A stretch of DNA of 16,826 nucleotides from Candidatus Moanibacter sp. (GTDB lineage Bacteria > Verrucomicrobiota > Verrucomicrobiia > Opitutales > UBA2987). Of the stretch, positions 85 to 16,826 are shown one piece after another. Location of the stretch: the NCBI GenBank assembly GCA_965215885.1, contig CBDCEW010000059.1:1-16826 (forward strand), written 5' to 3'. The notes under the pieces are model-generated. The model was not told the DNA's origin and searched no databases. It saw only the letters and a list, made by a program, of their open reading frames with translations. The position numbers and the translations under genes are program-made. Position 1 is the first letter of the stretch; each line of letters begins with the position of its first letter.

Positions 85-1231
85 TTATGAATTCAGGGAT
101 TCTCCTTTTTTGGTGAGTTTGTAGCCGTCCTTGCCGGTGTGGAAGTAGTCCTCCTTCTTCCCCTTGAGCAGGATGCGCTGAAGCGATCGTTTGGAGCCGG
201 AATCCTCTCCGCCAAGAGCGGCATGGATCTCGCCGATTTTTCTTCGGCCCGTCGGCAAGAGTTTCAGCGGCCTCGGCAATGGAGAAATTCGCATTGGACC
301 GCTTGCCCTCAACGTCGTCTTTCCAGGCATTGAGATGGAAGTTCGGATCGATATCATAGAGCATCGTCTCCTCGTTCAACTTGAGGCCCACCAGGTCGAA
401 GGGTTTGGCGTCGTTCGACTTGCCGCAGGAAACGACGATGCGGGAATGGTCGTCGGGATCTGCGGGAGCGATGTTGATTTGGGACCGCGCTCCCGAGTAG
501 AGGGCCTTGGAACCCAAAGCGAAGTTTCCCTTGTCCCACCCTACTGCTTGGGCGATGTTTTGCCGCCCGGTGCGTCCGTGGTGAACGATGATGATGGCAG
601 TGGTCGGATCGAAGAGGCGGCAAACCTTGGTCAGTTCACGCAAGGTCTGCCGGACATCGACGTCCTTGTTGATGTCGCCGACATTTACCTCGCCGAACGG
701 ATCGACATAGATGCAGTTCGGTTGAGTCGACTCGATCGTGTCCTGCCACTTCTTTCGGATGTCGTCGGAGCCGAGATTGATGAAAGCATCGTCAATCTCC
801 CAGACAACATGGAAGAAGACATGGGCATCGACCAAGGCCTTTTGATTAGGTGTGAGCGCGGCGGTCATTTTCAGGTAGTCGGATTTCTGACGGTAGATAC
901 TGTTCTCGGTGCCGATCAGGAGATGGCGCAGTGGCTCCGGGTGCGTAGGCATTCCGGCGACGGGCCAGCCCATGACTTGCGAAATGGCCGTCTGCATAAC
1001 GATCCGGCTCTTGCCGGTGCCACCCTGCCCGATGAGCGTGGTGAGTTGCCCGAGCGCGATCACGCCATCGCCCAGGACGTCGACCTTCGGCGGGACCGAT
1101 ACGCTACGGAGTTGCGCGCCCGAAAGCACGGTGAAGGGCTTCGATGCGGGATGGGTTTGATTTTCGATGGCGTGGAAGTCGGGATCTTCGATTTCCCGCC
1201 AGAGATCGGTAAAATTCCGCGATGCAGTCAT
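85..1231 (-). CDS. AAA_25 / RepA-like SF4 replicative helicase with a probable C-terminal winged HTH; one +1 frameshift at 237-241
   Basis: Translated by hand; absent from the ORF track because the frame runs off the window edge without a stop. ATG at 1231 overlaps the primase TGA (ATGA) and reads MTASRNFTDLW. Motifs: Walker A GQGGTGKS, Walker B CIYVDP, IIIVHHGRT, GSKALYSGARS. After GPKK, removing one A from the A5 run joins it to the tail of ORF 85..357 (IGEIHAALGG...GYKLTKKGESLNS*), which resembles a wHTH. Confidence 0.85.
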
Positions 1232-2089
1232 TCATGAAACGGGTTTGGATTGAAGTGGAGGACGTGTTGCGTTTCGCTGTTGTCGCGTCGGCCTCCGGGC
1301 ATACGCACGAGCTTGGCCGGGTCCCAGAGGGACGAATCGGCTCCGAGGTAAACCGCGTGCCGGAAAAAGCGGAGCTTGGCATACTCGGAGATTTGCTGGA
1401 CCTGGAACCAGCCGTGCAGCGACTTGCCCCCGGACCAAACGACCAGCGTCAGCGGAGTCAGTTTGGTGGACAGCGAACCAAGGATCGCGGCTTGTTCGGC
1501 AAGTGTTCCCCGGTCGAACTCGATGACCAGGTAGGTGCGCTGTTTCGTGGCGTTGTCGTGGCAACGTGCCGAGACGCGACCTGATTGATTGAGGCCGGTC
1601 CCCGCGGTCATCGGGTTGGCGACGATGAATTGAAGCGCCGCCTCCTTGCCCCGCCATGCATCGCGGGGCTGAGTCTGCGCGGATCGGGTGTCGAGCGCGG
1701 CACAGACCAAGGGATCGCCGGGAAAAAGCCGATCGACCACCATCTCGGCGGTGACCTCCAGCGGCGTCTCGGAGAATGGAACCGGGTGATGCTTGCGCCG
1801 TTCCCATGCGGCCGGATTGAAGTCCGGCCAAGCGGGGATCCGCCGATTTCCCGGAAACCTTGGCTTTTCCGAGTAGGTCCGGGCGACGGCGCGGTCGATC
1901 TCGGGACCGAAGTCGCGGTCGTCCCAACGGGACGCAACCTTGCGAAGGAAGCTGCGGACCTTCTCCGGCGAAGCGAAATGGCGTGCCCGCTTGGCGACGG
2001 TGAACAGCCACACGTTGCGACTGCCCTTGACCGGCGGGATTGTTGAGTGCCTCGGTGAGGGCCGGTGGAAGTCCTGAAAGAATCGCCAT
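1228..2089 (-). CDS. AEP-superfamily (RepB-like) primase; +1 frameshift near the 5' end (2024-2038)
   Basis: AEP-like motifs LVIEFD, WSGGKSLHGWF and DSSLWDPAKLVRMPG in ORF 1228..2160. The likely start is ATG 2089 (GAGG upstream, right after the polymerase stop), reading MAILSGLPPALTEALNNP in the neighbouring frame and switching to GSRNVWLFTVAK. Confidence 0.75.
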
Positions 2090-2099
2090 GATCGGTGCC

Positions 2100-3026
2100 T
2101 CACTTGCAGTAGGTTTGTGTTTCGATGCCCTCGGCAGCGACGGGCAGACCTGGCATCCATGTCGGAGTCCGGGCGAGCAAACCGGTGACAATATCGGGCG
2201 TGACTTCCGGATCCTCGGGCACTTCGCAGATTACCTCATCGTGAACGGTCCAAAGGATCCGAATTCCGGCCTGGTGGATACGGAGCAATCCCTCGGCGAA
2301 GACATCGCGACCAGTGGCTTGGACCACGTTTTCGGTGAGTTTTCCGCCATACCATTCGAAGCGGCGCCCGCCCCGCTCCGTTGCAGCGGTGATGCCGCTA
2401 TCGAAAGCGTGAACGTTGAAGTAGTGGATCCCGCGACCGCTTGGCAGACGCACGAAAAAGGTATGGCCATGGCGGCTCCGCATCTGGTTTTCGAGATTCC
2501 GCCACAACCCGGTGATGCGTGGATTGGCCGCACGGAAGTCGTCTACGGTGGCCTTCGCCTCGGCGAGCGTGATTTCCGGACCGTAGGTCTTGGCGAGGTT
2601 CTGGAAGGTTTTGGCTCCGGCACCGTAGCCGAGACCGATCACCCGGCATTTCGCCAAGAGGTAGCGACGCGGGTCCTCTTTCTTCAAGTTCGCTCCGGTG
2701 AAACCCATCGAAGTTTCCGCGTGGGCCTGATAGATCGTCAGCCCTCCACGTATTTTCTCCAGCAAGTCGAAGTCGCCCGCCATCCACGCGAGGACACGCG
2801 GCTCGATCCGGGAAAGGTCGGCGATGAGGAGCTTGTGGCCTGGTCGAGCGATCAGGCAGCGGCGCGGATCGACACCGTGAAGCGGCTCTCGGTTGAAGTT
2901 CTTGAGATTGAGGCCGGCATCCCCGGACCATCGACCGGTGGCAATCGCGCCGAAATACTTCAGCGAGAACGGGAGTGAGCCATCCGGTCGGCAACGGTCA
3001 CGCATCGTCTCCAAGACCCGAAGCAT
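2100..3026 (-). CDS. Phage-type family A DNA polymerase, C-terminal polymerase domain only (5'-truncated)
   Basis: TGRWSG, motif A ADLSRIEPRVLA, motif B RLLAK..IGLGYG (RYLLAKCRVIGLGYGAG), motif C TVHDEV. The frame extends upstream through PWIRHIRNWRKSNR to an in-frame TGA at 3120-3122, leaving no room for an exonuclease domain. Confidence 0.9.
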   Translation of the reverse strand: MLRVLETMRDRCRPDGSLPFSLKYFGAIATGRWSGDAGLNLKNFNREPLHGVDPRRCLIARPGHKLLIADLSRIEPRVLAWMAGDFDLLEKIRGGLTIYQAHAETSMGFTGANLKKEDPRRYLLAKCRVIGLGYGAGAKTFQNLAKTYGPEITLAEAKATVDDFRAANPRITGLWRNLENQMRSRHGHTFFVRLPSGRGIHYFNVHAFDSGITAATERGGRRFEWYGGKLTENVVQATGRDVFAEGLLRIHQAGIRILWTVHDEVICEVPEDPEVTPDIVTGLLARTPTWMPGLPVAAEGIETQTYCK

Positions 3027-3126
3027 ACGATTCGATTTCCGCCAGTTTCGGATGTGTCGAATCCACGGAGCGCGGCAAGACGGGGGCCAGTCTCGGTGCG
3101 GGTGGTGACTTTGGACAAGTCATCGC

Positions 3127-3348
3127 TTACCGGCGTCGAGGGTTGACGGTGCAATTCTCGTCCAGCGCGGCCCGGACCTTCTCCACGTCGAAGCGGACGA
3201 AGTGGCCGATCTTGACGTAGGGAATTTTCCGCTGGGCCTGCATCTGGCGAAGCCAGCGCAAGGACGGTCGGCTCTGTTCGTCGAAAAGGGCTTCGAGGAG
3301 CCCGTTGGCGTCAACGAGTTTCGGTTGGGTGGGCAAAGGTGTTTCCAT
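3127..3348 (-). CDS. Excisionase-like (HTH_17 / MerR-fold) DNA-binding protein
   Basis: 73 aa with PSLRWLR...RKIPYVKIGHFVRFDVEKVRAAL, the IPxxKIGxxVRF wing motif of Xis-like proteins; sits within the same minus-strand gene run. Confidence 0.75.
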   Translation of the reverse strand: METPLPTQPKLVDANGLLEALFDEQSRPSLRWLRQMQAQRKIPYVKIGHFVRFDVEKVRAALDENCTVNPRRR

Positions 3349-3360
3349 CTTCGTAATTTA

Positions 3361-3561
3361 TTAGAGTTTGGTGAAGTCGTCGGAGTGAATCAGGAGCCAG
3401 AAGCCGGGCCTGCCCTTCTCGGACAGGCGCAGCCGTTTCGCGTCACGGAGCGTGGTGGGCCGGAGCCCGTCACCGCCCGCGCGAGGCAAGCGGTGACAGG
3501 GCGACCCGTCGGCTTTATACCAGTGCGTGGACTGGCTCTGATCTTTCTTGAGAACTGCCAT
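3361..3561 (-). pseudogene. Chimeric remnant: N-terminus of a phage nuclease-like protein fused to the C-terminus of another small phage protein
   Basis: ATG 3561 with GGAG upstream. HWYKADGSPC...LRPTTLRDAKRL resembles (from memory) the start of phage PD-(D/E)XK-type exonucleases that continue GLxPSVT. Here it runs directly into LSEKGRPGFWLLIHSDDFTKL*. Confidence 0.5.
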
Positions 3562-3577
3562 GATCAGCGAACTCCGC

Positions 3578-4112
3578 TTAGAATGGGCCGTTCTCCTGCG
3601 GATCGACCGCGGGATTCCATGCCTGCTGCGGCGCAGCCGGCGGAGCGGGAGCCTGAGCTTGGGCGAAGGCTTCAAGCGGGAGCACCTGCGGCTTGAGCTG
3701 GTCGATGACCGGAGAAATGCCGACCATGTTGGCGTAGGTCTTCGTCCCCTCGCGGCTTTCCCTGTGGGCCACGGTAATCATCGGCGCCCTGGCCGCGAAG
3801 TTCGCAGTAGTCCCAACCATACTTCGGCGGATGGCCGAGCCAACTGGTCAGCAATTTGAACAGGTTGCTCTTGGGCGATCCGCTGATGCGGAATTCGAAG
3901 GTCTGGACCTTGTAGGTCTGGCCGTCCTGACCGCGGAACCCGAAAAGGAAGCCCGTAACATCGAGCTTCTCGATTTCCTGCGGGTTCTCGAATTTCGGAC
4001 GATCAACACCAAACTGGTCCTGAACGTCGAGACAGGTGGCAACGAATGTGCCAGCGGGAGCGAGGGCTCCGGTGTCGAAGCCAGAGGCTTCGGGTTCTTT
4101 CATAACTGCCAT
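3578..4112 (-). pseudogene. Phage SSB-like / NGO0469-family replication protein, split by a +1 frameshift at about 3781-3789
   Basis: ORF 3672..4112 (GTFVATCLDVQD...KSNLFKLLTSWLG...WDYCELRGQGA) continues in ORF 3578..3820 (MITVAH...KTYANMVGISP), ending in a Pro/Ala/Gln linker and an SSB-like tail DPQENGPF*. Confidence 0.65.
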
Positions 4113-9475: not shown

Positions 9476-9523
9476 ATTTCGCGCGGCGAAATGCCAAGAA
9501 ATCCGTGCCCTCGCACGAATTTC
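9476..9523. repeat. 48-bp double-hairpin REP-like repeat, copy B, abutting the RAYT stop codon
   Basis: ATTTCGC-gcg-GCGAAAT hairpin, then AGAAATCCGTGC-cctc-GCACGAATTTCT. Confidence 0.7.
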
Positions 9524-10524
9524 TACCCGAAAACCTCCCGTCGAAGATCGCGCAGCACAGTCAGGCCCTCCCAACCACTCCCTTTCATCCGCCTGGGACC
9601 GCTCTTTCGGTTCGCCCCAAACTGATTTCTGAACTCCTCAAATATGCCTTGAACGAATTCTTCCGAACCCATGACCGCACCATCCGCAAAATAGCGCACC
9701 CGGCACCGCAAGGCCGCCGCTACCGGCACTTTCCCTCCCTCTTCTATCACCTTTCTCCACTCCTCATCGGATATCTTTGCGCCTCCACTCGGCGAGGGTG
9801 AGGCACCTTTACAGTAGAGTAACTTGCGATACTCGCTCGCCGCTTTCCTCCAGGTCATTTCCTCGCCTTCAATTCTACGGATGCTCTCCTCGATCCCATG
9901 GCGAGCTCTGAGAAACCCTCCCATCGCCTCACCGTAGCCACTCCAACGATACTCCTTCGGGTCTTCCACGATCTTCGCCCGCACCGGATTCAGATCAATA
10001 TACGCTGCCGTGATCCGCAATGCAGCATCCGTCCCCTCCACCAGGGTACTCTTGAACCGTTCGCACCATAGCGTCCCCACTCGATTGTGCGTACGATTGT
10101 ACCAGATCGAAAATCGCTGCTTCAACGTCTTCATGAACTGGGAGACATCATGCATCCGATCCAGGAGCTGTTTCCTCAGGGCCTTCCCCTCCTCTCCATC
10201 TTCTAAAAGCTTCATCTCCAACACCTTGGCATCCGCCTGCTGATAGGCTGTGGGCTTCGGGTACAGCACCCGATATCGCCGCATTAACTCCTCATCGGAA
10301 ACCACTACACTCTCCCGATCAGGAATTCTTAAGAGCACGTGAAAATGATTATTCATTATACAGTAAGTAATCACCTCCACCCCGCTGAAGTCCGCAATCT
10401 GCCAGAGCTGCTTGCGCAGGACCTCTTTCGCTACCCGATCAATCAATTTTTCCTTGTTCACCGTCCGAGTCATACAATGATACACGGCACTACGCCCAAT
10501 AATCTTCAATCTGGATTTACGCAT
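9523..10524 (-). CDS. REP-associated tyrosine transposase (RAYT-like Y1 HUH)
   Basis: YHCMTR, YCIMNNHFHVL (HUH), LWCERFKS, YIDLNPVRAKIV...YRWSGY; 333 aa with a C-terminal extension; no tnpB nearby; RBS AGGGGG. Confidence 0.92.
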   Translation of the reverse strand: MRKSRLKIIGRSAVYHCMTRTVNKEKLIDRVAKEVLRKQLWQIADFSGVEVITYCIMNNHFHVLLRIPDRESVVVSDEELMRRYRVLYPKPTAYQQADAKVLEMKLLEDGEEGKALRKQLLDRMHDVSQFMKTLKQRFSIWYNRTHNRVGTLWCERFKSTLVEGTDAALRITAAYIDLNPVRAKIVEDPKEYRWSGYGEAMGGFLRARHGIEESIRRIEGEEMTWRKAASEYRKLLYCKGASPSPSGGAKISDEEWRKVIEEGGKVPVAAALRCRVRYFADGAVMGSEEFVQGIFEEFRNQFGANRKSGPRRMKGSGWEGLTVLRDLRREVFG

Positions 10525-10732
10525 GAATATTCCCCCTTCTAACTTTCTCGTTGAAAGATATAATAAGACTGTCCCTATTCCTCTATTCCTATTCTATCAA
10601 TCAGTCAAACTTTATTTTCGCATGGAGATCCATTCCGCAGGGTAAAAGGATTCCAGGAAGCAACTAGCTGATAAGCAAGAAGATAAAAAAAGAGCTAAAC
10701 AAACCCGAGGGAATCAGTCATGTTAAGATGGG

Positions 10733-11178
10733 ATGAAAGACAAAAAATCTTACCAACTGAATCCTTCGATAGATCGTTTAACTCTGCGTCTGGTCCTGCC
10801 CGAAGAGCAGGAGCGATTCAATGATCTATTGAAACAACATCATTATTTACACAGTGCGGGCAGCGCAGGAGAGACCCTGCGCTATGTGGCGCAGATCGAC
10901 GGGCAATGGATGGGCCTGCTCTTGTGGGGGGCCGCATCCTACCGGCTGAAGGATCGAGACGAATGGATCGGGTGGGACGGGGCGCAACGGCATGCACGAT
11001 TGAAACTGGTAGTACAGAACCGGCGTTTTCTGATTTTGCCCGGGGTGGATCTTGCAAATTTGGCCTCCAAGACGTTGGGTATGTGCCTGAGAGTCTTAGC
11101 CGATCACTGGCAGGAGGCTTTTGGCTATCGTCCCTTAGTAGCGGAAACGTTCGTGGACCCACAGATTCACCGGGGCAT
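10733..11178 (+). pseudogene. 5' part of the ISAs1 transposase: DUF4338 (DruA-like) domain, interrupted
   Basis: HHYL...LRYVA...WGAA..LKDRDEWIGW...NRRFLILP...NLASK...ETFVDP..HRG. The tail of ORF 10733..11299 after this point is read-through into the inserted IS. Confidence 0.88.
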
Positions 11179-13096
11179 AGACCCCATTCGAAAAGCCTTT
11201 CGAGCGGGCGGTTTAAGGTTCTCCGCCACGGGCGGACCAGCCTATGGCTGGCAGGTTTCGGGTTTTAGGCTGCCGGCGCTGCCGATGAGCAGGTATTGAG
11301 CGGCCATCGGCGTGGCTTGCTGCACAATACGTATATTTGCCGCTGTCTGGAGGCATACTCATCCCGTGGTGCTTTTTTCTCTGAGCTTCAAAGCGGTCAG
11401 ATTCAGGCTGCCTGTTCCAGTTCCTCCCCTCGGCGTTTCTTCATCAGTATGATGCGGCAGAAGTTGTAGGCCAGAACCTTCTCGAGCAGTTCATCGCCTA
11501 CCGCATCGATGCCGCGGCGGCCGAGTTCGCCAAAGGCAAATCCATCTTTAATCGTGAACATCAGCGACTCCACTGCGGAGCGATCGCGGCGTGCCTCGCG
11601 ATACGCCTCGCTCTCCCAGTCCTCGGGGGTGGTCAACTTCTTGCCCTTCGCCCCACTGATACTGATCTGCTTTACCCCCATGCTCAGCACCTCCTTGCGT
11701 CCCTTCGCCGAAGCATATCCGTCATCGGTGCTGACCAGTTCAGCAATGACACCGGTGCGCTTGATCGAATCGCCGATGGCCGGCGCCAGCTCAATGGAGT
11801 CTGCCGCGTTGCCTTGCGGTACGATCAGGCTGGTGACAAAACCGTTTTCGCTGCGAACCAGTTGTGGCTTGTACCCGATCACTGGATTGCGGCTGCCCTT
11901 CTTGATGTAGGCCGCCGATCCGTCCGAGAGGCTCAGGACCTTCTGTGTGGACGGTAGCTTCTTTTCGTGAAACACCCGATCATGAGCATACTCAACAACC
12001 CGCTTGGCGTCGGCAATATCGCCCCTGATCTGGCTCAATGCCCGCTCCAGAAGCTCCCGGCGAGTGGGAGGCAGTGAATCCATCGACAGGCCCTCTTCAA
12101 GATGGCTCAGTTCCCCCGTTAGTGAGTCGGCCGCCTTGCGGCCCCGCTTGAGCAACCGCCGGTAGTGTTTCTTCAGCTTGCCCTTCGACTTCGGTTTGCC
12201 CGCGGCCAGACAAATCTGAAACTCCAGCTTGTCCATTTCCTCCAGCCAACGCCCAACCCATCCCTTGCGAAAATCCTCCAGCCCGAAGACATGCAACTTC
12301 TGACCCAAACGATTGGCCCGCATCAAAAGACCGCTCAGAATCTTCCCATCGGTGGGCCAGCAGCTGTTTGCTTTCACCGAGGTGCTGTCGATCGTCAGCT
12401 TCCCGAAATCGTCCCATTGCTCCTGGAGGATAAACCCAATCTGTTTATCAAAGATCAACTCGCGGGTCCTATGGCTGACCAGGTTCACGTTCTCCAGAAT
12501 CGTCGTCACCGCCGGCATTCTCAGTCCCCCGCTCTGCAAAAATCCGTACAAGCTCATCGACTCGCGCACAAACCGCCGTGCCGGTTTCGTGGTCAACGAA
12601 CCCAGAAACCCTCGAATCATCACGAACACGTATACCGCATAAGCCGGCATCCGCGGCCGGCCTGCCCCAAGATTCAATTCAGCAGCCAGAATATTCTCCT
12701 CCTCGATGTCCAGCTCCGGCAGCTCCGCTGTGCGCCCTTCAAAGAACCTCGATCTTCCAATCGAAGTTTCTTCTTCTCACGCGCATGGGCGTCCAGATCC
12801 TTCTCGATCGCCTCGATGATTTGCGCCGCGAACCCGGCCAATTCTTCAACTTCATCCAGAAAATCACGGAAATCCGTGTCTGGAACCGGCAGAATGAGGT
12901 TGCTAAGGGGCGTCTTATCGCTTTTGTTCTCCTCTGTCGCACATGTTGGCATGTTTAACTCCTTTCTTAATCTTAGGTTGTTAAACACTAGCATGTTGCG
13001 ACACTTTTTATCAAGCCACAAAATGATTTTTCTCAAGTTTTTCTTGCGCCTTTTGCGCCTCTTTGCGGCCAATCAGTAGCTTTTCGGATAAGGTCT
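11179..13096 (-). mobile_element. IS5/ISNCY-like insertion sequence (about 1.9 kb) nested in the ISAs1 transposase
   Basis: IRs AGACCCCATTCGAAAAGC (11179-11196) and the reverse complement of 13079-13096, AGACCTTATCCGAAAAGC (15/18). The flanks rejoin HRG|CYEASGW of DUF4338. Confidence 0.88.
11403..12952 (-). pseudogene. IS5/ISNCY-like DDE transposase with a one-base deletion near 12750
   Basis: ATG 12952 with RBS AAGGAG. N-terminal part MPTCATEEN...KKKLRLED joins RFFEGRTAELPEL...GRPRM in the -1 frame. Motifs: IDSTSVKANSCWPTD, TDDGY, RSAVESLMFTIK. Confidence 0.85.
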
Positions 13097-14424
13097 TGCT
13101 ACGAAGCGAGCGGGTGGACGCCCTTGGGCTTGAGCGCGGGATATGGCCGCCAACGCGAAGATTTCTATCAACGCCATGAGCGTCCCAAGCAGATCTGGGT
13201 CAAACCCCTCAAGGCTAATGCCCTTGAGCTTTTGCGCGCTTCAGGGCCATTGCCCGCGGCACAGAGCCAGGCGCTCAATGAAACCGATAACTCCCATGCG
13301 GTCTGCCTCAAAGTGGAACAGATGAGCAGCCTGTGGGAACGCTTCAATCAGATAGAAGACTTCCGTCGTAAAGCGGGCCTTAGATATCGGCTCGCCACGG
13401 TCCTGAGCATGATTGTGCTCGGCACGATGTGCGGCAAACAGACCCTCAAGGGCATCGTGCGCCTGGCCCATCATCTCAATCAAGCCCAATTGCGCGCCTT
13501 ACGCTCCTGGAAAAACCCCAAAACAGGCCGCTATAAGGCCCCTTGCTATGATGTCTTCTATCGGGTCTTGCAAAACGTAAAGGCCGAGCTCTTCGATAAA
13601 ACCCTCACCGAATTCATCTGCTTACAAGACGGCTGTTTGCCCCGCGATATTGCCGTCGACGGCAAGACCCTCAAAGGCACAAACACCGAAGAATCAAAGG
13701 CTCTGCACCTGGTGGCCGCAGTCGATCACCAAAGCGCTCAAACCTTAGCCCAAGTCGCTACCGCCGATAAATCCAACGAGATCACCGCCGCCCAGACTCT
13801 CTTGCGAAAGATGCCCATTTTGGACGGCTCCACCTTCACCTTCGACGCCATGCATAATCAAAAAGAAACTGCCCACATCGTCGTCGAAGAACTCAGTGCT
13901 GACTATGTTATTCAAATTAAAGACAATCAGCCCAACATGCATCAATACGCTCAGAATCTCTTCAGCTCCACCCCCTTTTTCTCCACCAAACCGTGGACAA
14001 TGACCATGGGCGACTCGAAATACGTCAAATAGCAACCCATTCTCTAAGCGCTCCCTCTGCCGGCCTGCCCCATGCCCGCCAGTTCGCCTGTGTGCAACGC
14101 ACCTTCCATTATCCAAACAAAGCTGAACCTTCCTCTGAACGCTCTTACTACGTAAGCAGTCTCGATCCCGCCGATTTGAGCCCTCAACAGTTCCTCTCGA
14201 AAATTCGCAACCATTGGTCGATCGAAAATAAAAATCATTACCCCAGGGATCGCTTCTTCGATGAAGATCGATGTATGATCCGTAATCATAACGCAGCCAG
14301 AATTCTTGCTGCATGCAGGCAACTGGTTCTCAGCCTCAAGTCTTCCATGGGCGCTGAATCCACTCCCGCACTCTGTGATGATTTCGTCTTTAACTTACAT
14401 AAGGCCATCAATATCATCACCTAA
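13097..14424 (+). CDS. 3' part of the ISAs1 transposase (rest of DUF4338, DDE-associated domain, DDE domain) in two frames joined by a -1 shift at C5T5 (13971-13980)
   Basis: DFRRKAGLRY, IAVDGKTLKG, KSNEI, TFDAMHNQ, IKDNQP, then HGRLEIR and RNHWSIENKNHYPRDRFFDED. Confidence 0.92.
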
Positions 14425-14492
14425 TGCTCCGAGAATCATCGTGCAGCCGTGGGTTCTTTTTATGTTCCGGATGCACTCGAATTCATTGAACG

Positions 14493-14679
14493 GAAGGTAG
14501 TCTGCAGACGGCAGAGCACCGCATTGTGATCGCCGTAGTGATGAGGTTTCTCGATTCCCTTTGCGTCAAAGAACCTAGAGTGTCATCCAGGAATCTTATA
14601 GTAGCTCCAGGTTATTCATCCAAGGGGCCGAGTGGAGCCGCAGGAAAAACTCGGCGAGGCCCCTTTGTGAATAACTTGG
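14493..14679 (+). ncRNA. Orphan structured non-coding segment resembling the left-end non-coding region of another IS110-family element
   Basis: Stems ACGGC/GCCGT (14508-12/14532-36), AGGTT/AACCT, CTTTG/CAAAG (14559-71), and a long hairpin at 14607-14679. The family resemblance (GCACCGCATT...GCCGTAG...GAACCT...AATCTTATAG) is from memory only. Confidence 0.4.
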
Positions 14680-14733
14680 CCGATCAGTGGTTGGCGATGG
14701 GTCAAAGAGTTTGTTTGGCTAAGGGTGAAAATA

Positions 14734-14900
14734 TTCAAAGGCAGCCGTCCACTACGAACTTAGGAATCAGTCCGAAGAGGACTTCCGACAGAATTTCGAG
14801 TGGACGGCCTGCCTGGATGACCGAAAACGAACACTCAGTTTACATCCTCATAACAGGATCCAACTATAAGGACTTCGCCTGGACATCCAGTGCCTTTGAA
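14734..14900 (+). ncRNA. Bridge-RNA-like guide RNA of the IS110 element
   Basis: Closing stem TTCAAAGGCA/TGCCTTTGAA (10/10). Arm 1 GCCGTCCACT/AGTGGACGGC (10/10) with an internal loop and hairpin AGTCC/GGACT. Arm 2 CTGGATG/CATCCAG with an internal loop and hairpin ATCCT/AGGAT. Loop segments match the flank and the donor end. Confidence 0.8.
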
Positions 14901-14933
14901 AAAAGCAAAAAGACAAACTAAAGGAACAAAGGG

Positions 14934-16244
14934 ATGCAGAAAAGGGAAAAAACAAATCGATATAGTGTGGTGATAGGAATTGATTGGGCGGATCAGAAAA
15001 ACGATCTGTGGATCATAGAGAGCGAAACGGGAAAAGGGACCCATCGACAGGTGGCGCAGGATGCGGTCAGCTTGCACGAATTTGCCGTAGAGATGAGAGA
15101 AAAGTATGCCAGCGTGGGCAAGCGCATGGCCATGGTGGTGGACCAGAAGCGAGGAGGGTTGATCAACTTTCTGATGGGCTTGGAGTTTGTCGATATCTAT
15201 CCAGTGCATGCGGCCAGGGCGAAGGATTATCGCCGGGCGCTGTATCCATCAGGGGCCAAGAGCGACCCGGTCGATGCGCAAATACACGCGGAGTTTTTCC
15301 TCAAACATCCCGAGCTTTTTACCAAATGTTTCATACCTGACACGGCCCAAACACGGGAGCTGAACCTGTTGTGCGAGGACCGCCGTGGATTCGTCGATCA
15401 GGCTACCAGCCTCGAACAGCAGTTGGGCAGTTGTCTGAAGCAATATAACCCTTTGGTCTTGAAATTGTTCGATGATCTAGGCAGTGGCCTGTGCCTGCAC
15501 TTTATATTGCGTTGGCCGACCCTCAAGAAGCTGCACAGAGCATCGGAGGGTGTCTTGCGAAAGTTCTTCTATAAGCACAACTGTCGCAGTGACGCCAAAA
15601 TCCAGGAGCGTCTCGAATTGATCGGTAACGCACGAGCCTTGACCGAAGATGCAGCCATCATTGAAGCATCCAGCAGAAAAGCACAGACGTTGGCCGGACA
15701 GCTTTTGACCCTGTGCCCGCAGATCAAAGCGTATGAGAAGCGTATCAGGGAGCTATTCAGAAGCCATCCCGATGCAGCCGTGTTCAGTGGCATTCCCGGA
15801 GCCGGCGAGGTCATGAGTCCCCGGTTGCTGTGCGCGTTCGGGACCGATCGTTCGCACTTCGAAACGGCCCAGAACATGACCCAGTGGAATGGATCCGCTC
15901 CGGTCACGATCAACAGCGGGCAGGACAAAAGAACCGGACAACCGAAACGAATGGTCAACTGGCGGTGGGCGGCTCCTACCTTCGTGCGGCAAAGTTTCGT
16001 TGAATTTGCCGAACATTCGATCCGAAACTGTGCCTGGGCAAAGGCCTTTTACCAGATCAAAAAAGAACAGGGCAAACCCCGCCAAACCATTCTTCGTGCC
16101 CTCGCTCTCAAGTGGACCCGCATTCTGTTTCGCTGTTGGCAAAATAGCGAACGCTACGATGAGCAAAAGTATCTCCAATCGCTCCAACGCACCGGTTCAC
16201 CGGTGTGGAAAAGACTTCAGCAAGCAAATGCCAACGCCTTGTAA
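14934..16244 (+). CDS. IS110-family (DEDD) recombinase/transposase
   Basis: 436 aa, intact. IGIDWAD, VVDQKRG, KSDPVDA, GIPGAG, GSAPVTINSG (catalytic-serine motif), RALALKWTRILFRCW. Confidence 0.96.
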   Translation: MQKREKTNRYSVVIGIDWADQKNDLWIIESETGKGTHRQVAQDAVSLHEFAVEMREKYASVGKRMAMVVDQKRGGLINFLMGLEFVDIYPVHAARAKDYRRALYPSGAKSDPVDAQIHAEFFLKHPELFTKCFIPDTAQTRELNLLCEDRRGFVDQATSLEQQLGSCLKQYNPLVLKLFDDLGSGLCLHFILRWPTLKKLHRASEGVLRKFFYKHNCRSDAKIQERLELIGNARALTEDAAIIEASSRKAQTLAGQLLTLCPQIKAYEKRIRELFRSHPDAAVFSGIPGAGEVMSPRLLCAFGTDRSHFETAQNMTQWNGSAPVTINSGQDKRTGQPKRMVNWRWAAPTFVRQSFVEFAEHSIRNCAWAKAFYQIKKEQGKPRQTILRALALKWTRILFRCWQNSERYDEQKYLQSLQRTGSPVWKRLQQANANAL

Positions 16245-16566
16245 ACACAACATGAGAAAAAACTCAAAAAATCCCTTGACGGACTACCTCAGTTTTCTGT
16301 CGGAATTCGCTTTTCTAGACTTCCCTGAGGTACGGATTCTTAGGTGAGAGATTGAGATACCGACGAAGATTGAGACCGACAGATTCCTTCGAAGAAAATG
16401 AACCTGAGATTTGAGACAATTTGTAATACCTATTGCGTCCTTGGCTGAGATTCCTCCGATATAGAGTTGAGGCCCCTGCATTCATCGTGGAAAAATCGTT
16501 TAAAGCACATCGGCCGAGGAAAACTTCGACCACTCTCCCACAATTCTCAGATTCATTTTCTTATTG

Positions 16567-16634
16567 CTAGCAACCTGTCGGAATGAAACTGAGTAACTCT
16601 GCCGAAAGAAGCATAAAGTCCGACAGGTTGCTAG
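16567..16634. repeat. 68-bp MITE/REP-like element with perfect 16-bp inverted repeats
   Basis: CTAGCAACCTGTCGGA (16567-16582) and TCCGACAGGTTGCTAG (16619-16634); CTAG at both ends. Confidence 0.8.
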
Positions 16635-16650
16635 GCCGGAGCAATCAGCT

Positions 16651-16826
16651 ATGAAACGCAGGCTGAAGCATGTAGAATCTACTGAGCGAAGGGTATGGTT
16701 AGCTGCCCTCGCAATTGTCGTCCTGGTGCCGGCAATCGGGATGGGATTTCGAATTGTCGATAAAGCAACGCAAGAGCCACCTGTAGAAGAAGCTTCTCTG
16801 CTATCATTTTCCGCGAAACCCTCTAT
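16651..16826 (+). CDS. Partial gene: membrane-anchored or exported hypothetical protein (runs off the window)
   Basis: GGAG RBS; MKRRLKHVESTERRVWLAALAIVVLVPAIGMGF..., a basic N-terminus followed by a hydrophobic stretch. Confidence 0.6.
   Translation, partial: MKRRLKHVESTERRVWLAALAIVVLVPAIGMGFRIVDKATQEPPVEEASLLSFSAKPS

Follow-up and report, generated by a model that had tools for sequence, protein, structure and literature searches.

A probable RNA-guided IS110-family recombinase directed to the tips of IS1182-type MITEs

Among the described systems closest to the locus examined here, IS621 of E. coli carries, according to the available text of its reports (PMC11208160, PMC11208158, PMC13626964), a non-coding left end with a 5′ stem-loop, a target loop and a donor loop, together with a CT core, a promoter at the circle junction, a multicopy intergenic palindromic target and rare donor-like insertions; all of these are shared with the IS110 element described below. 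ISPpu10 of Pseudomonas putida is likewise reported, in the text available (10.64898/2026.03.19.712850), to have a CT core and to target a family of about 200 intergenic repeats, 40.8% of which lie in convergent pairs less than 200 bp apart. Its target includes a conserved 5′ stem-loop (10.64898/2026.03.19.712850), whereas the left flanks of the sites occupied here were unrelated beyond ~8 bp and no such gate was evident. In the IS1111 group, the accessible part of PMC11187229 describes (i) RNA-guided insertion of IS4321/IS5075, ISKpn4, and ISPa11 onto the terminal repeat of another element, attC or REP; and (ii) close relatives that were naturally re-directed (ISEc11/ISXne4 and ISEc21/ISMch6). 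The non-coding region of that group is downstream and accompanied by subterminal inverted repeats (PMC11187229), in contrast to the upstream, IS110-type arrangement found here. Published work on the IS110 family already covers the targeting of REPs, attC sites, and transposon ends, as well as paired targets in convergent orientation and re-direction in nature.

The window, meaning the whole 16,826-bp stretch of DNA analysed, corresponds to contig C59 of an IS-rich assembly of 6.36 Mb that is 90% complete. It carries an IS110 element (Table 1) whose left-end guides match both the tip of a MITE and the joined ends of the element itself, and we consider it probable (roughly 0.9) that this element encodes an RNA-guided bridge recombinase which inserts at the CT of the MITE tip. 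Several differences from IS621, as described in the available text on that element, were apparent: (i) the protein is 436 aa compared with 328 aa and could be aligned over the C-terminal part only (E-value 2e-4); (ii) the predicted RNA is ~300 nt compared with 177 nt, with a right target guide of ~8 nt; (iii) the target is the tip of an IS1182-type MITE rather than a REP; and (iv) the handshake, read in the IS621 register, is neutral, and target and donor share a T at position 7.

Table 1. Coordinates of the IS110 element, its predicted RNA and the adjoining repeats in the window.
Feature	Position	Strand	Basis or remark
Left flank of doubtful assembly	14439..14588		150 bp, degenerate copy of the tRNA-His region on C104
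Left target AGGAAT, outer half of the arm split by the IS	14589..14594	+	Hexamer immediately to the left of 9 of the 10 copies
IS110 element	14595..16298	+	1704 bp with both CT cores included; flank comparison of copies
Left CT core, true left boundary	14595..14596	+	Flank comparison of copies
-10 box TATAGT, doubling as right donor	14597..14602	+	Promoter present only in the predicted circle; putative activity
Predicted bridge RNA 5′ stem-loop	14607..14679	+	Fold z; similar hairpin in distant relatives
Internal left-end sequence GCTAAGGGT	14718..14726	+	Within copies; taken for flank in the earlier note
Target-binding loop	14740..14813	+	Guides at 14760-14768 (left) and 14784-14791 (right); AA handshake at 14792-14793
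Donor-binding loop	14813..14890	+	Guides at 14834-14843 (left) and 14863-14870 (right); GA handshake at 14871-14872
IS110 recombinase, 436 aa	14934..16244	+	PF01548 and PF02371; PDB matches IS621 and ISCro4
-35 box TTGACG, in right end	16276..16281	+	
Left donor and right CT core (core 16297-16298)	16288..16298	+	Copy flanks
Rest of repeat A, IS1182-type MITE	16299..16388	+	98 bp when empty, family mostly 96-97 bp; far arm 16376-16388, minus strand
Repeat C, 22-bp inverted ends	16392..16562		171 bp; overlooked in the earlier note
Repeat B, 16-bp perfect inverted ends	16567..16634		68 bp; CTGTCGGA in common; unoccupied by IS110

BLAST analysis of the region identified 10 full copies of the IS110 and two fragments in the source genome, with alignments beginning at ~14589-14595, and the nine copies compared base by base were near-identical (0 to 2 differences). 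The left end was assigned to position 14595 because (i) the ends joined at this site give TTGACG and TATAGT at a spacing of 17 bp; (ii) both joined ends are read by the donor loop; and (iii) three relatives of 38-44% identity share the start, CT followed by TATAG, and the 17-bp spacer. The earlier note had placed the flank within the left end of the element, at 14718-14726, and the empty site reconstructed from it was found nowhere in the genome (0 occurrences). Insertion at the CT was scarless, in that the empty sites are intact arms and removal of the copy on contig C84 restores an intact protein sequence. A 3-bp TCT core was also considered and was ruled out, as its first base (position 7) follows the target in 3 of 20 copies of a related genome (G006) as well as in the C84 copy, which leaves CT as the core.

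The surroundings of the element in the window are less secure on the left than on the right. The window ends 530 bp after the IS110, and this right flank is 99.6% identical to contig C25. Positions 14439-14588 had no cover in any of the four runs and correspond to a gapped, noisy copy (78%) of the tRNA-His flank of the IS110 copy on contig C104, and the ISAs1-like element before this segment is without its usual end. The left junction of C25 was covered into the IS in two of the four runs (X2 and X3), and the C104 flank in X3. The left join of the window is therefore likely chimeric, combining a C104-like flank with the C25 right flank; the candidate left flanks from C25 and C104 yield the same empty site. 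The copy on C104 (324306-326149) occupies a solitary arm, with a tRNA-His gene on one side and a tRNA-Arg gene on the other. No tRNA was detected in the window by ARAGORN. Further upstream, the ISAs1-like element (10638-14438) has an N-terminal DruA/DUF4338 domain and is interrupted at 11178-13096 by the most abundant IS of the genome (BLAST group of ~100 copies). A 333-aa RAYT-like Y1 transposase with several paralogues is encoded at 9523-10524, and it is not flanked by CTGTCGG repeats. Phage-like replication genes occupy 1228-4112 on the minus strand, including a DNA polymerase A fragment, a putative primase-like ORF without a Pfam match and a possible single-strand-binding protein.

The recombinase scored above the cut-off for both PF01548 (64.5 bits) and PF02371 (38 bits), and below it on the NCBIfam IS110 model NF033542 (119 vs 140). 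Residues D17, D111, D114, and S328 are invariant in 30 homologues, and D70 replaces the catalytic E, with D at that place in 4 of the 30. As judged by these residues and domains, the protein has the DEDD RuvC-like plus Tnp (catalytic serine) composition of the IS110 group. Twelve viral loci were detected at ~36-47% identity, and a single-protein query of the genome collection returned no relative.

The non-coding end upstream of the recombinase gene was found to fold into target and donor loops with guides that match target and donor, as is typical of the IS110 group, and the fold of 14595-14935 had a z-score of -6.4. Prediction of the guides from 14760-14768 and 14784-14792, which had been proposed from the sequence of the window, was correct. 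When seven left ends were aligned by RNAalifold, the stems of the target loop were supported and the 5′ end was mis-paired with the right donor guide, a result that is to be expected since these two segments are complementary. The 5′ hairpin (14607-14679; L015, L214, L215, and L216) has a purine-rich GAG/GGAG..GAA internal motif that is conserved in distant relatives, and Rfam gave no match across 14400-16826, this hairpin included. In all five elements compared, joining of the ends generates a putative sigma-70 promoter, TTGACG-17 bp-TATAG(G/T). Neither a circle joint nor an empty-allele joint was listed in the public runs, where the search covered assembled contigs, from which rare forms are dropped.

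By analogy with IS621, excision would join TTGACG to TATAGT at 17 bp, and the promoter of the joined ends would switch on a bridge RNA of ~300 nt. The target loop of this RNA would pair with (T)AGGAAT-CT-GTCGGA and its donor loop with the circle junction, after which the recombinase would exchange strands at CT with no duplication of flanking DNA. The MITE tips, composed of a CTAG duplication and the IS1182 terminal repeat, would supply hundreds of intergenic landing sites. The handshake, which is a regulatory feature and does not define the family, was scored in the IS621 register and gave two Watson-Crick pairs before and two after exchange in the window element, and three and three in the G006 homologue. 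This register is supported by three distant relatives (L214, L215, and L216), for which the pairs before/after exchange were 1/2, 0/4, and 2/4. Target and donor of the window element share a T at position 7, a match of the kind that design rules for bridge editing avoid. In the available text of the IS622 preprint (10.1101/2025.05.14.653916), a matching position 7 in target and donor disturbs the handshake.

The repeats to the right of the element were examined for their frequency and arrangement in the genome. AGGAATCTGTCGG is present at 16376-16388 on the minus strand, and the pair at 16567-16582 and 16619-16634 is a perfect 16-bp inverted repeat, CTAGCAACCTGTCGGA, both as the earlier note had reported. 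Exact copies of AGGAATCTGTCGG numbered 256 in the genome compared with 0.65 expected (Markov model on 6-mers), and 170 of these had a partner in convergent orientation within 130 bp when up to 2 mismatches were allowed, compared with 6 in the divergent control; an exact convergent arm was present within 130 bp for 94. The motif is thus a real and paired inverted-repeat family, which the earlier note had made a condition of its reading. The 8-mers CTGTCGGA were paired in 82 of 568 cases, compared with 0-10 in 20 random placements. Only 13 of the 256 arms fall in ORFs of at least 200 aa, though such ORFs cover 69% of the genome, and the lengths of the repeat A pairs cluster at 35, 64-65, 88, and 96-97 bp. 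Repeat C is represented by 81 ends and 19 pairs of 171 bp; 26 of 27 repeat C pairs have, on one side or both, an immediate neighbour that is A, B, or the short palindrome D, an arrangement that forms mosaics. No autonomous partner was found for repeat C, and its ends had 0 matches in the viral scan. In the window, the 98-bp repeat A, the 171-bp repeat C, and the 68-bp repeat B together make up a mosaic of 345 bp, and 12 BLAST matches, the window and C25 among them, span at least 300 bp of it. An attC-like reading of repeat B was set aside, as the repeat is perfect and has no extrahelical bases and its 50-arm family has an IS1182-type end. Of 40 relatives searched, the motif was abundant in one (G006, 591 copies) and gave single matches in three others; scans of the collection revealed it in several phyla, often as ~165-bp pairs, and a plasmid search with a 165-bp relative returned no match.

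All ten full copies of the element were then compared in terms of the site occupied. Nine reside in AGGAATCTGTCGG, at AGGAAT-CT-GTCGG with 14 to 16 of 16 guide matches, which agrees with the proposal of the earlier note that the IS110 is programmed against MITE-type inverted-repeat ends and leaves little room for its converse, that other copies would lie in sites lacking CTGTCGG. Seven of the nine are in GGA-type and two in GGT-type arms, near the availability of these arms (159 and 72). Eight is a safer count of independent insertion events than nine, as the C59 copy may duplicate the C25 or the C104 event. The window copy sits in one arm of an inverted pair, as had been suggested, the other arm of this 98-bp repeat being the one at 16376; across the nine occupied repeats, the opposite arm is intact in six and absent within ~140 bp in three. 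None of the 10 copies lies in family B, which is mismatched at position 4 of the left target; given 50 B and 256 A arms, this absence is not significant and does not prove exclusion. Further insertions at neighbouring targets, also raised in the earlier note, are possible, although not special to this spot, as 289 sites of the genome are within one mismatch of the 15-nt target.

Guide and target were found to covary between orthologues. The related genome G006 has ~23 copies of a homologue with 79% aa identity, whose left guide (TTAGGAG) has a G where the window IS110 has an A. A G was present at that base in 20 of 20 readable left flanks, compared with 237 of 828 exact arms (binomial 1e-11, with copies that are not independent). 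As the G006 copies form one lineage, this shift appears from the sequences to be a single natural re-targeting event. The distant relatives L214, L215, and L216 (38-44% identity) carry guides of unrelated sequence, each in agreement with the flanks of its own element. Separately, in 3 of the 23 G006 copies (L003, L008, and L027) the left end of the IS110 was replaced by other DNA; two of the three share the base of the 5′ hairpin at which this happened.

The proposal that the IS sits in a mismatched site with a better target 80 bp away, and that the recombinase inverts the DNA between such inverted targets, was weighed against these data. The 16376 arm is a valid type of target, 2 of 9 copies being in GGTC-type arms, and inverted pairs are common in the genome. 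Against this, the claim of a better-matching unoccupied site is a consequence of the wrong left end: the occupied site matches the guide at 14 of 16 positions (run of 14), the unoccupied 16376 arm at 13 of 16 (run of 13), each B arm at 13 (longest run 8), and the site reconstructed in the earlier note at 12. None of the nine occupied repeats was seen to carry an IS in each of its arms. In IS621, moreover, no target-target recombination occurs and two target loops assemble no tetramer, according to the available text of PMC11208158, so that by analogy inversions made by the recombinase between two MITE arms are unlikely. Where repeat A lies beside repeat C the arm was mostly of the GAGA/CAGA type with no clear flipped class, which is a weak test. 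We regard the proposal as extremely improbable. The nature of the target repeats was weighed in a similar manner. The 35-bp palindromic forms, the mosaics of adjoining repeats, the intergenic location and the many Y1_Tnp genes in the genome would fit an origin as REP/REPIN sequences maintained by a RAYT transposase of the HUH type. This origin is nonetheless very unlikely, as no arm was located within 1 kb of any of the 21 Y1_Tnp matches examined (of 29 listed), by which a RAYT was ruled out as the mobiliser, ~165-bp paired forms recur across several phyla, and intact IS1182 elements are bounded by the same ends. Complete IS1182 elements of 1598-1641 bp (L078/L084, L108, and L116) have CTAG on both sides in all three cases, with CTAG-GAGTCTGTCGGA at one end of the full-length forms and a close variant at the other, and an AGGAAT variant occurs on a truncated IS1182 (L140). 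The L084 transposase scored 366.9 bits on NF033551 (cut-off 270), with the IS5 models under their cut-offs. The loci examined contained 196 arm matches, and 14 loci had mutually similar transposase peptides. The earlier suggestion of a MITE or IS5-like family thus holds as to the MITE ends, and the autonomous IS with the same ends belongs to the IS1182 family and not to IS5 proper. Repeat A is short, non-coding, multicopy and intergenic, with terminal inverted repeats in common with autonomous IS1182 (NF033551; L084, L108, and L116), namely GA(G/A)TCTGTCGGA with CTAG flanks; from these alignments the guide appears to spell the CTAG duplication plus the terminal repeat of IS1182-type ends. CTAG is partly kept at the MITEs of the source genome, where, among the bases that precede the arm, T was counted in 164 of 256 and C in 131 of 256. 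The local repeats differ from IS1182 in being gene-less, 35-217 bp, often single-armed or in 345-bp mosaics and without an intact partner in the genome. One query identified no intact IS1182 in the source genome (90% complete) or G006, only broken fragments (2 and 1 matches, respectively), and no autonomous IS with these ends was present among the long arm pairs or multicopy elements of the source genome, where IS1182 remnants alone were detected.

The tenth copy (C84:54652-56355; L018) is the exception to insertion at MITE tips and interrupts a gene for a 698-aa SAM-methyltransferase/spermidine-synthase-like membrane protein. Its flanks match the target guides at 7 of 16 positions but agree with all 10 bases of the left donor guide, and the site is the only exact CTCAGTTT.CTTAT in the 6.4-Mb genome. 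Removal of the IS with one CT kept gives FPDTSVYLWGAE, the same as in P0121, an intact 698-aa allele of 99% identity, and 93 of 120 homologues have a similar motif. That this is a single event, on a contig that has large inverted duplications and may be misassembled, would be compatible with ordinary off-target insertion, with a relic junction or with faulty assembly; these explanations are, however, rather unlikely in view of the 7/16 against 10/10 guide match, the single exact site in the genome and the existence of an intact allele in which these residues are the same. Judged from these sequences, the C84 copy is likely to be a natural donor-donor insertion into a chance donor mimic, with use of the donor loop only. 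Donor-like insertions occur in IS621 and IS622 experiments, as described in the available text (IS622: 10.1101/2025.05.14.653916). No natural donor-donor insertion was found in the literature searched, a narrow search that does not establish absence. The inverted duplications of C84 (1-15348 vs 43679-55142; 99.6% identity) start inside the IS110, and a fold-back misassembly or an amplification is possible.

No published report of an IS110 paired with an IS1182 element or MITE was present among the matches listed. What may be new is a lineage specialised on cross-phylum IS1182 ends, with one-base re-tuning, a neutral handshake, the same base at position 7 and a fixed donor-donor knockout of a host gene, a combination that we put forward only tentatively and hold to be doubtful as a whole. 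The window IS110 (10 copies) and its G006 homologue (~23 copies) both have a neutral handshake. If the combination holds, the element would be a bridge recombinase with a different control of directionality. Overall, the locus provides a clean natural example, from a distant branch of IS110 with large proteins, in which guide, target and donor can be read alongside numerous sites, both occupied and empty, and it offers three testable side results: (i) one-base re-targeting; (ii) a likely donor-donor insertion with an intact allele; and (iii) multiplication without handshake asymmetry.
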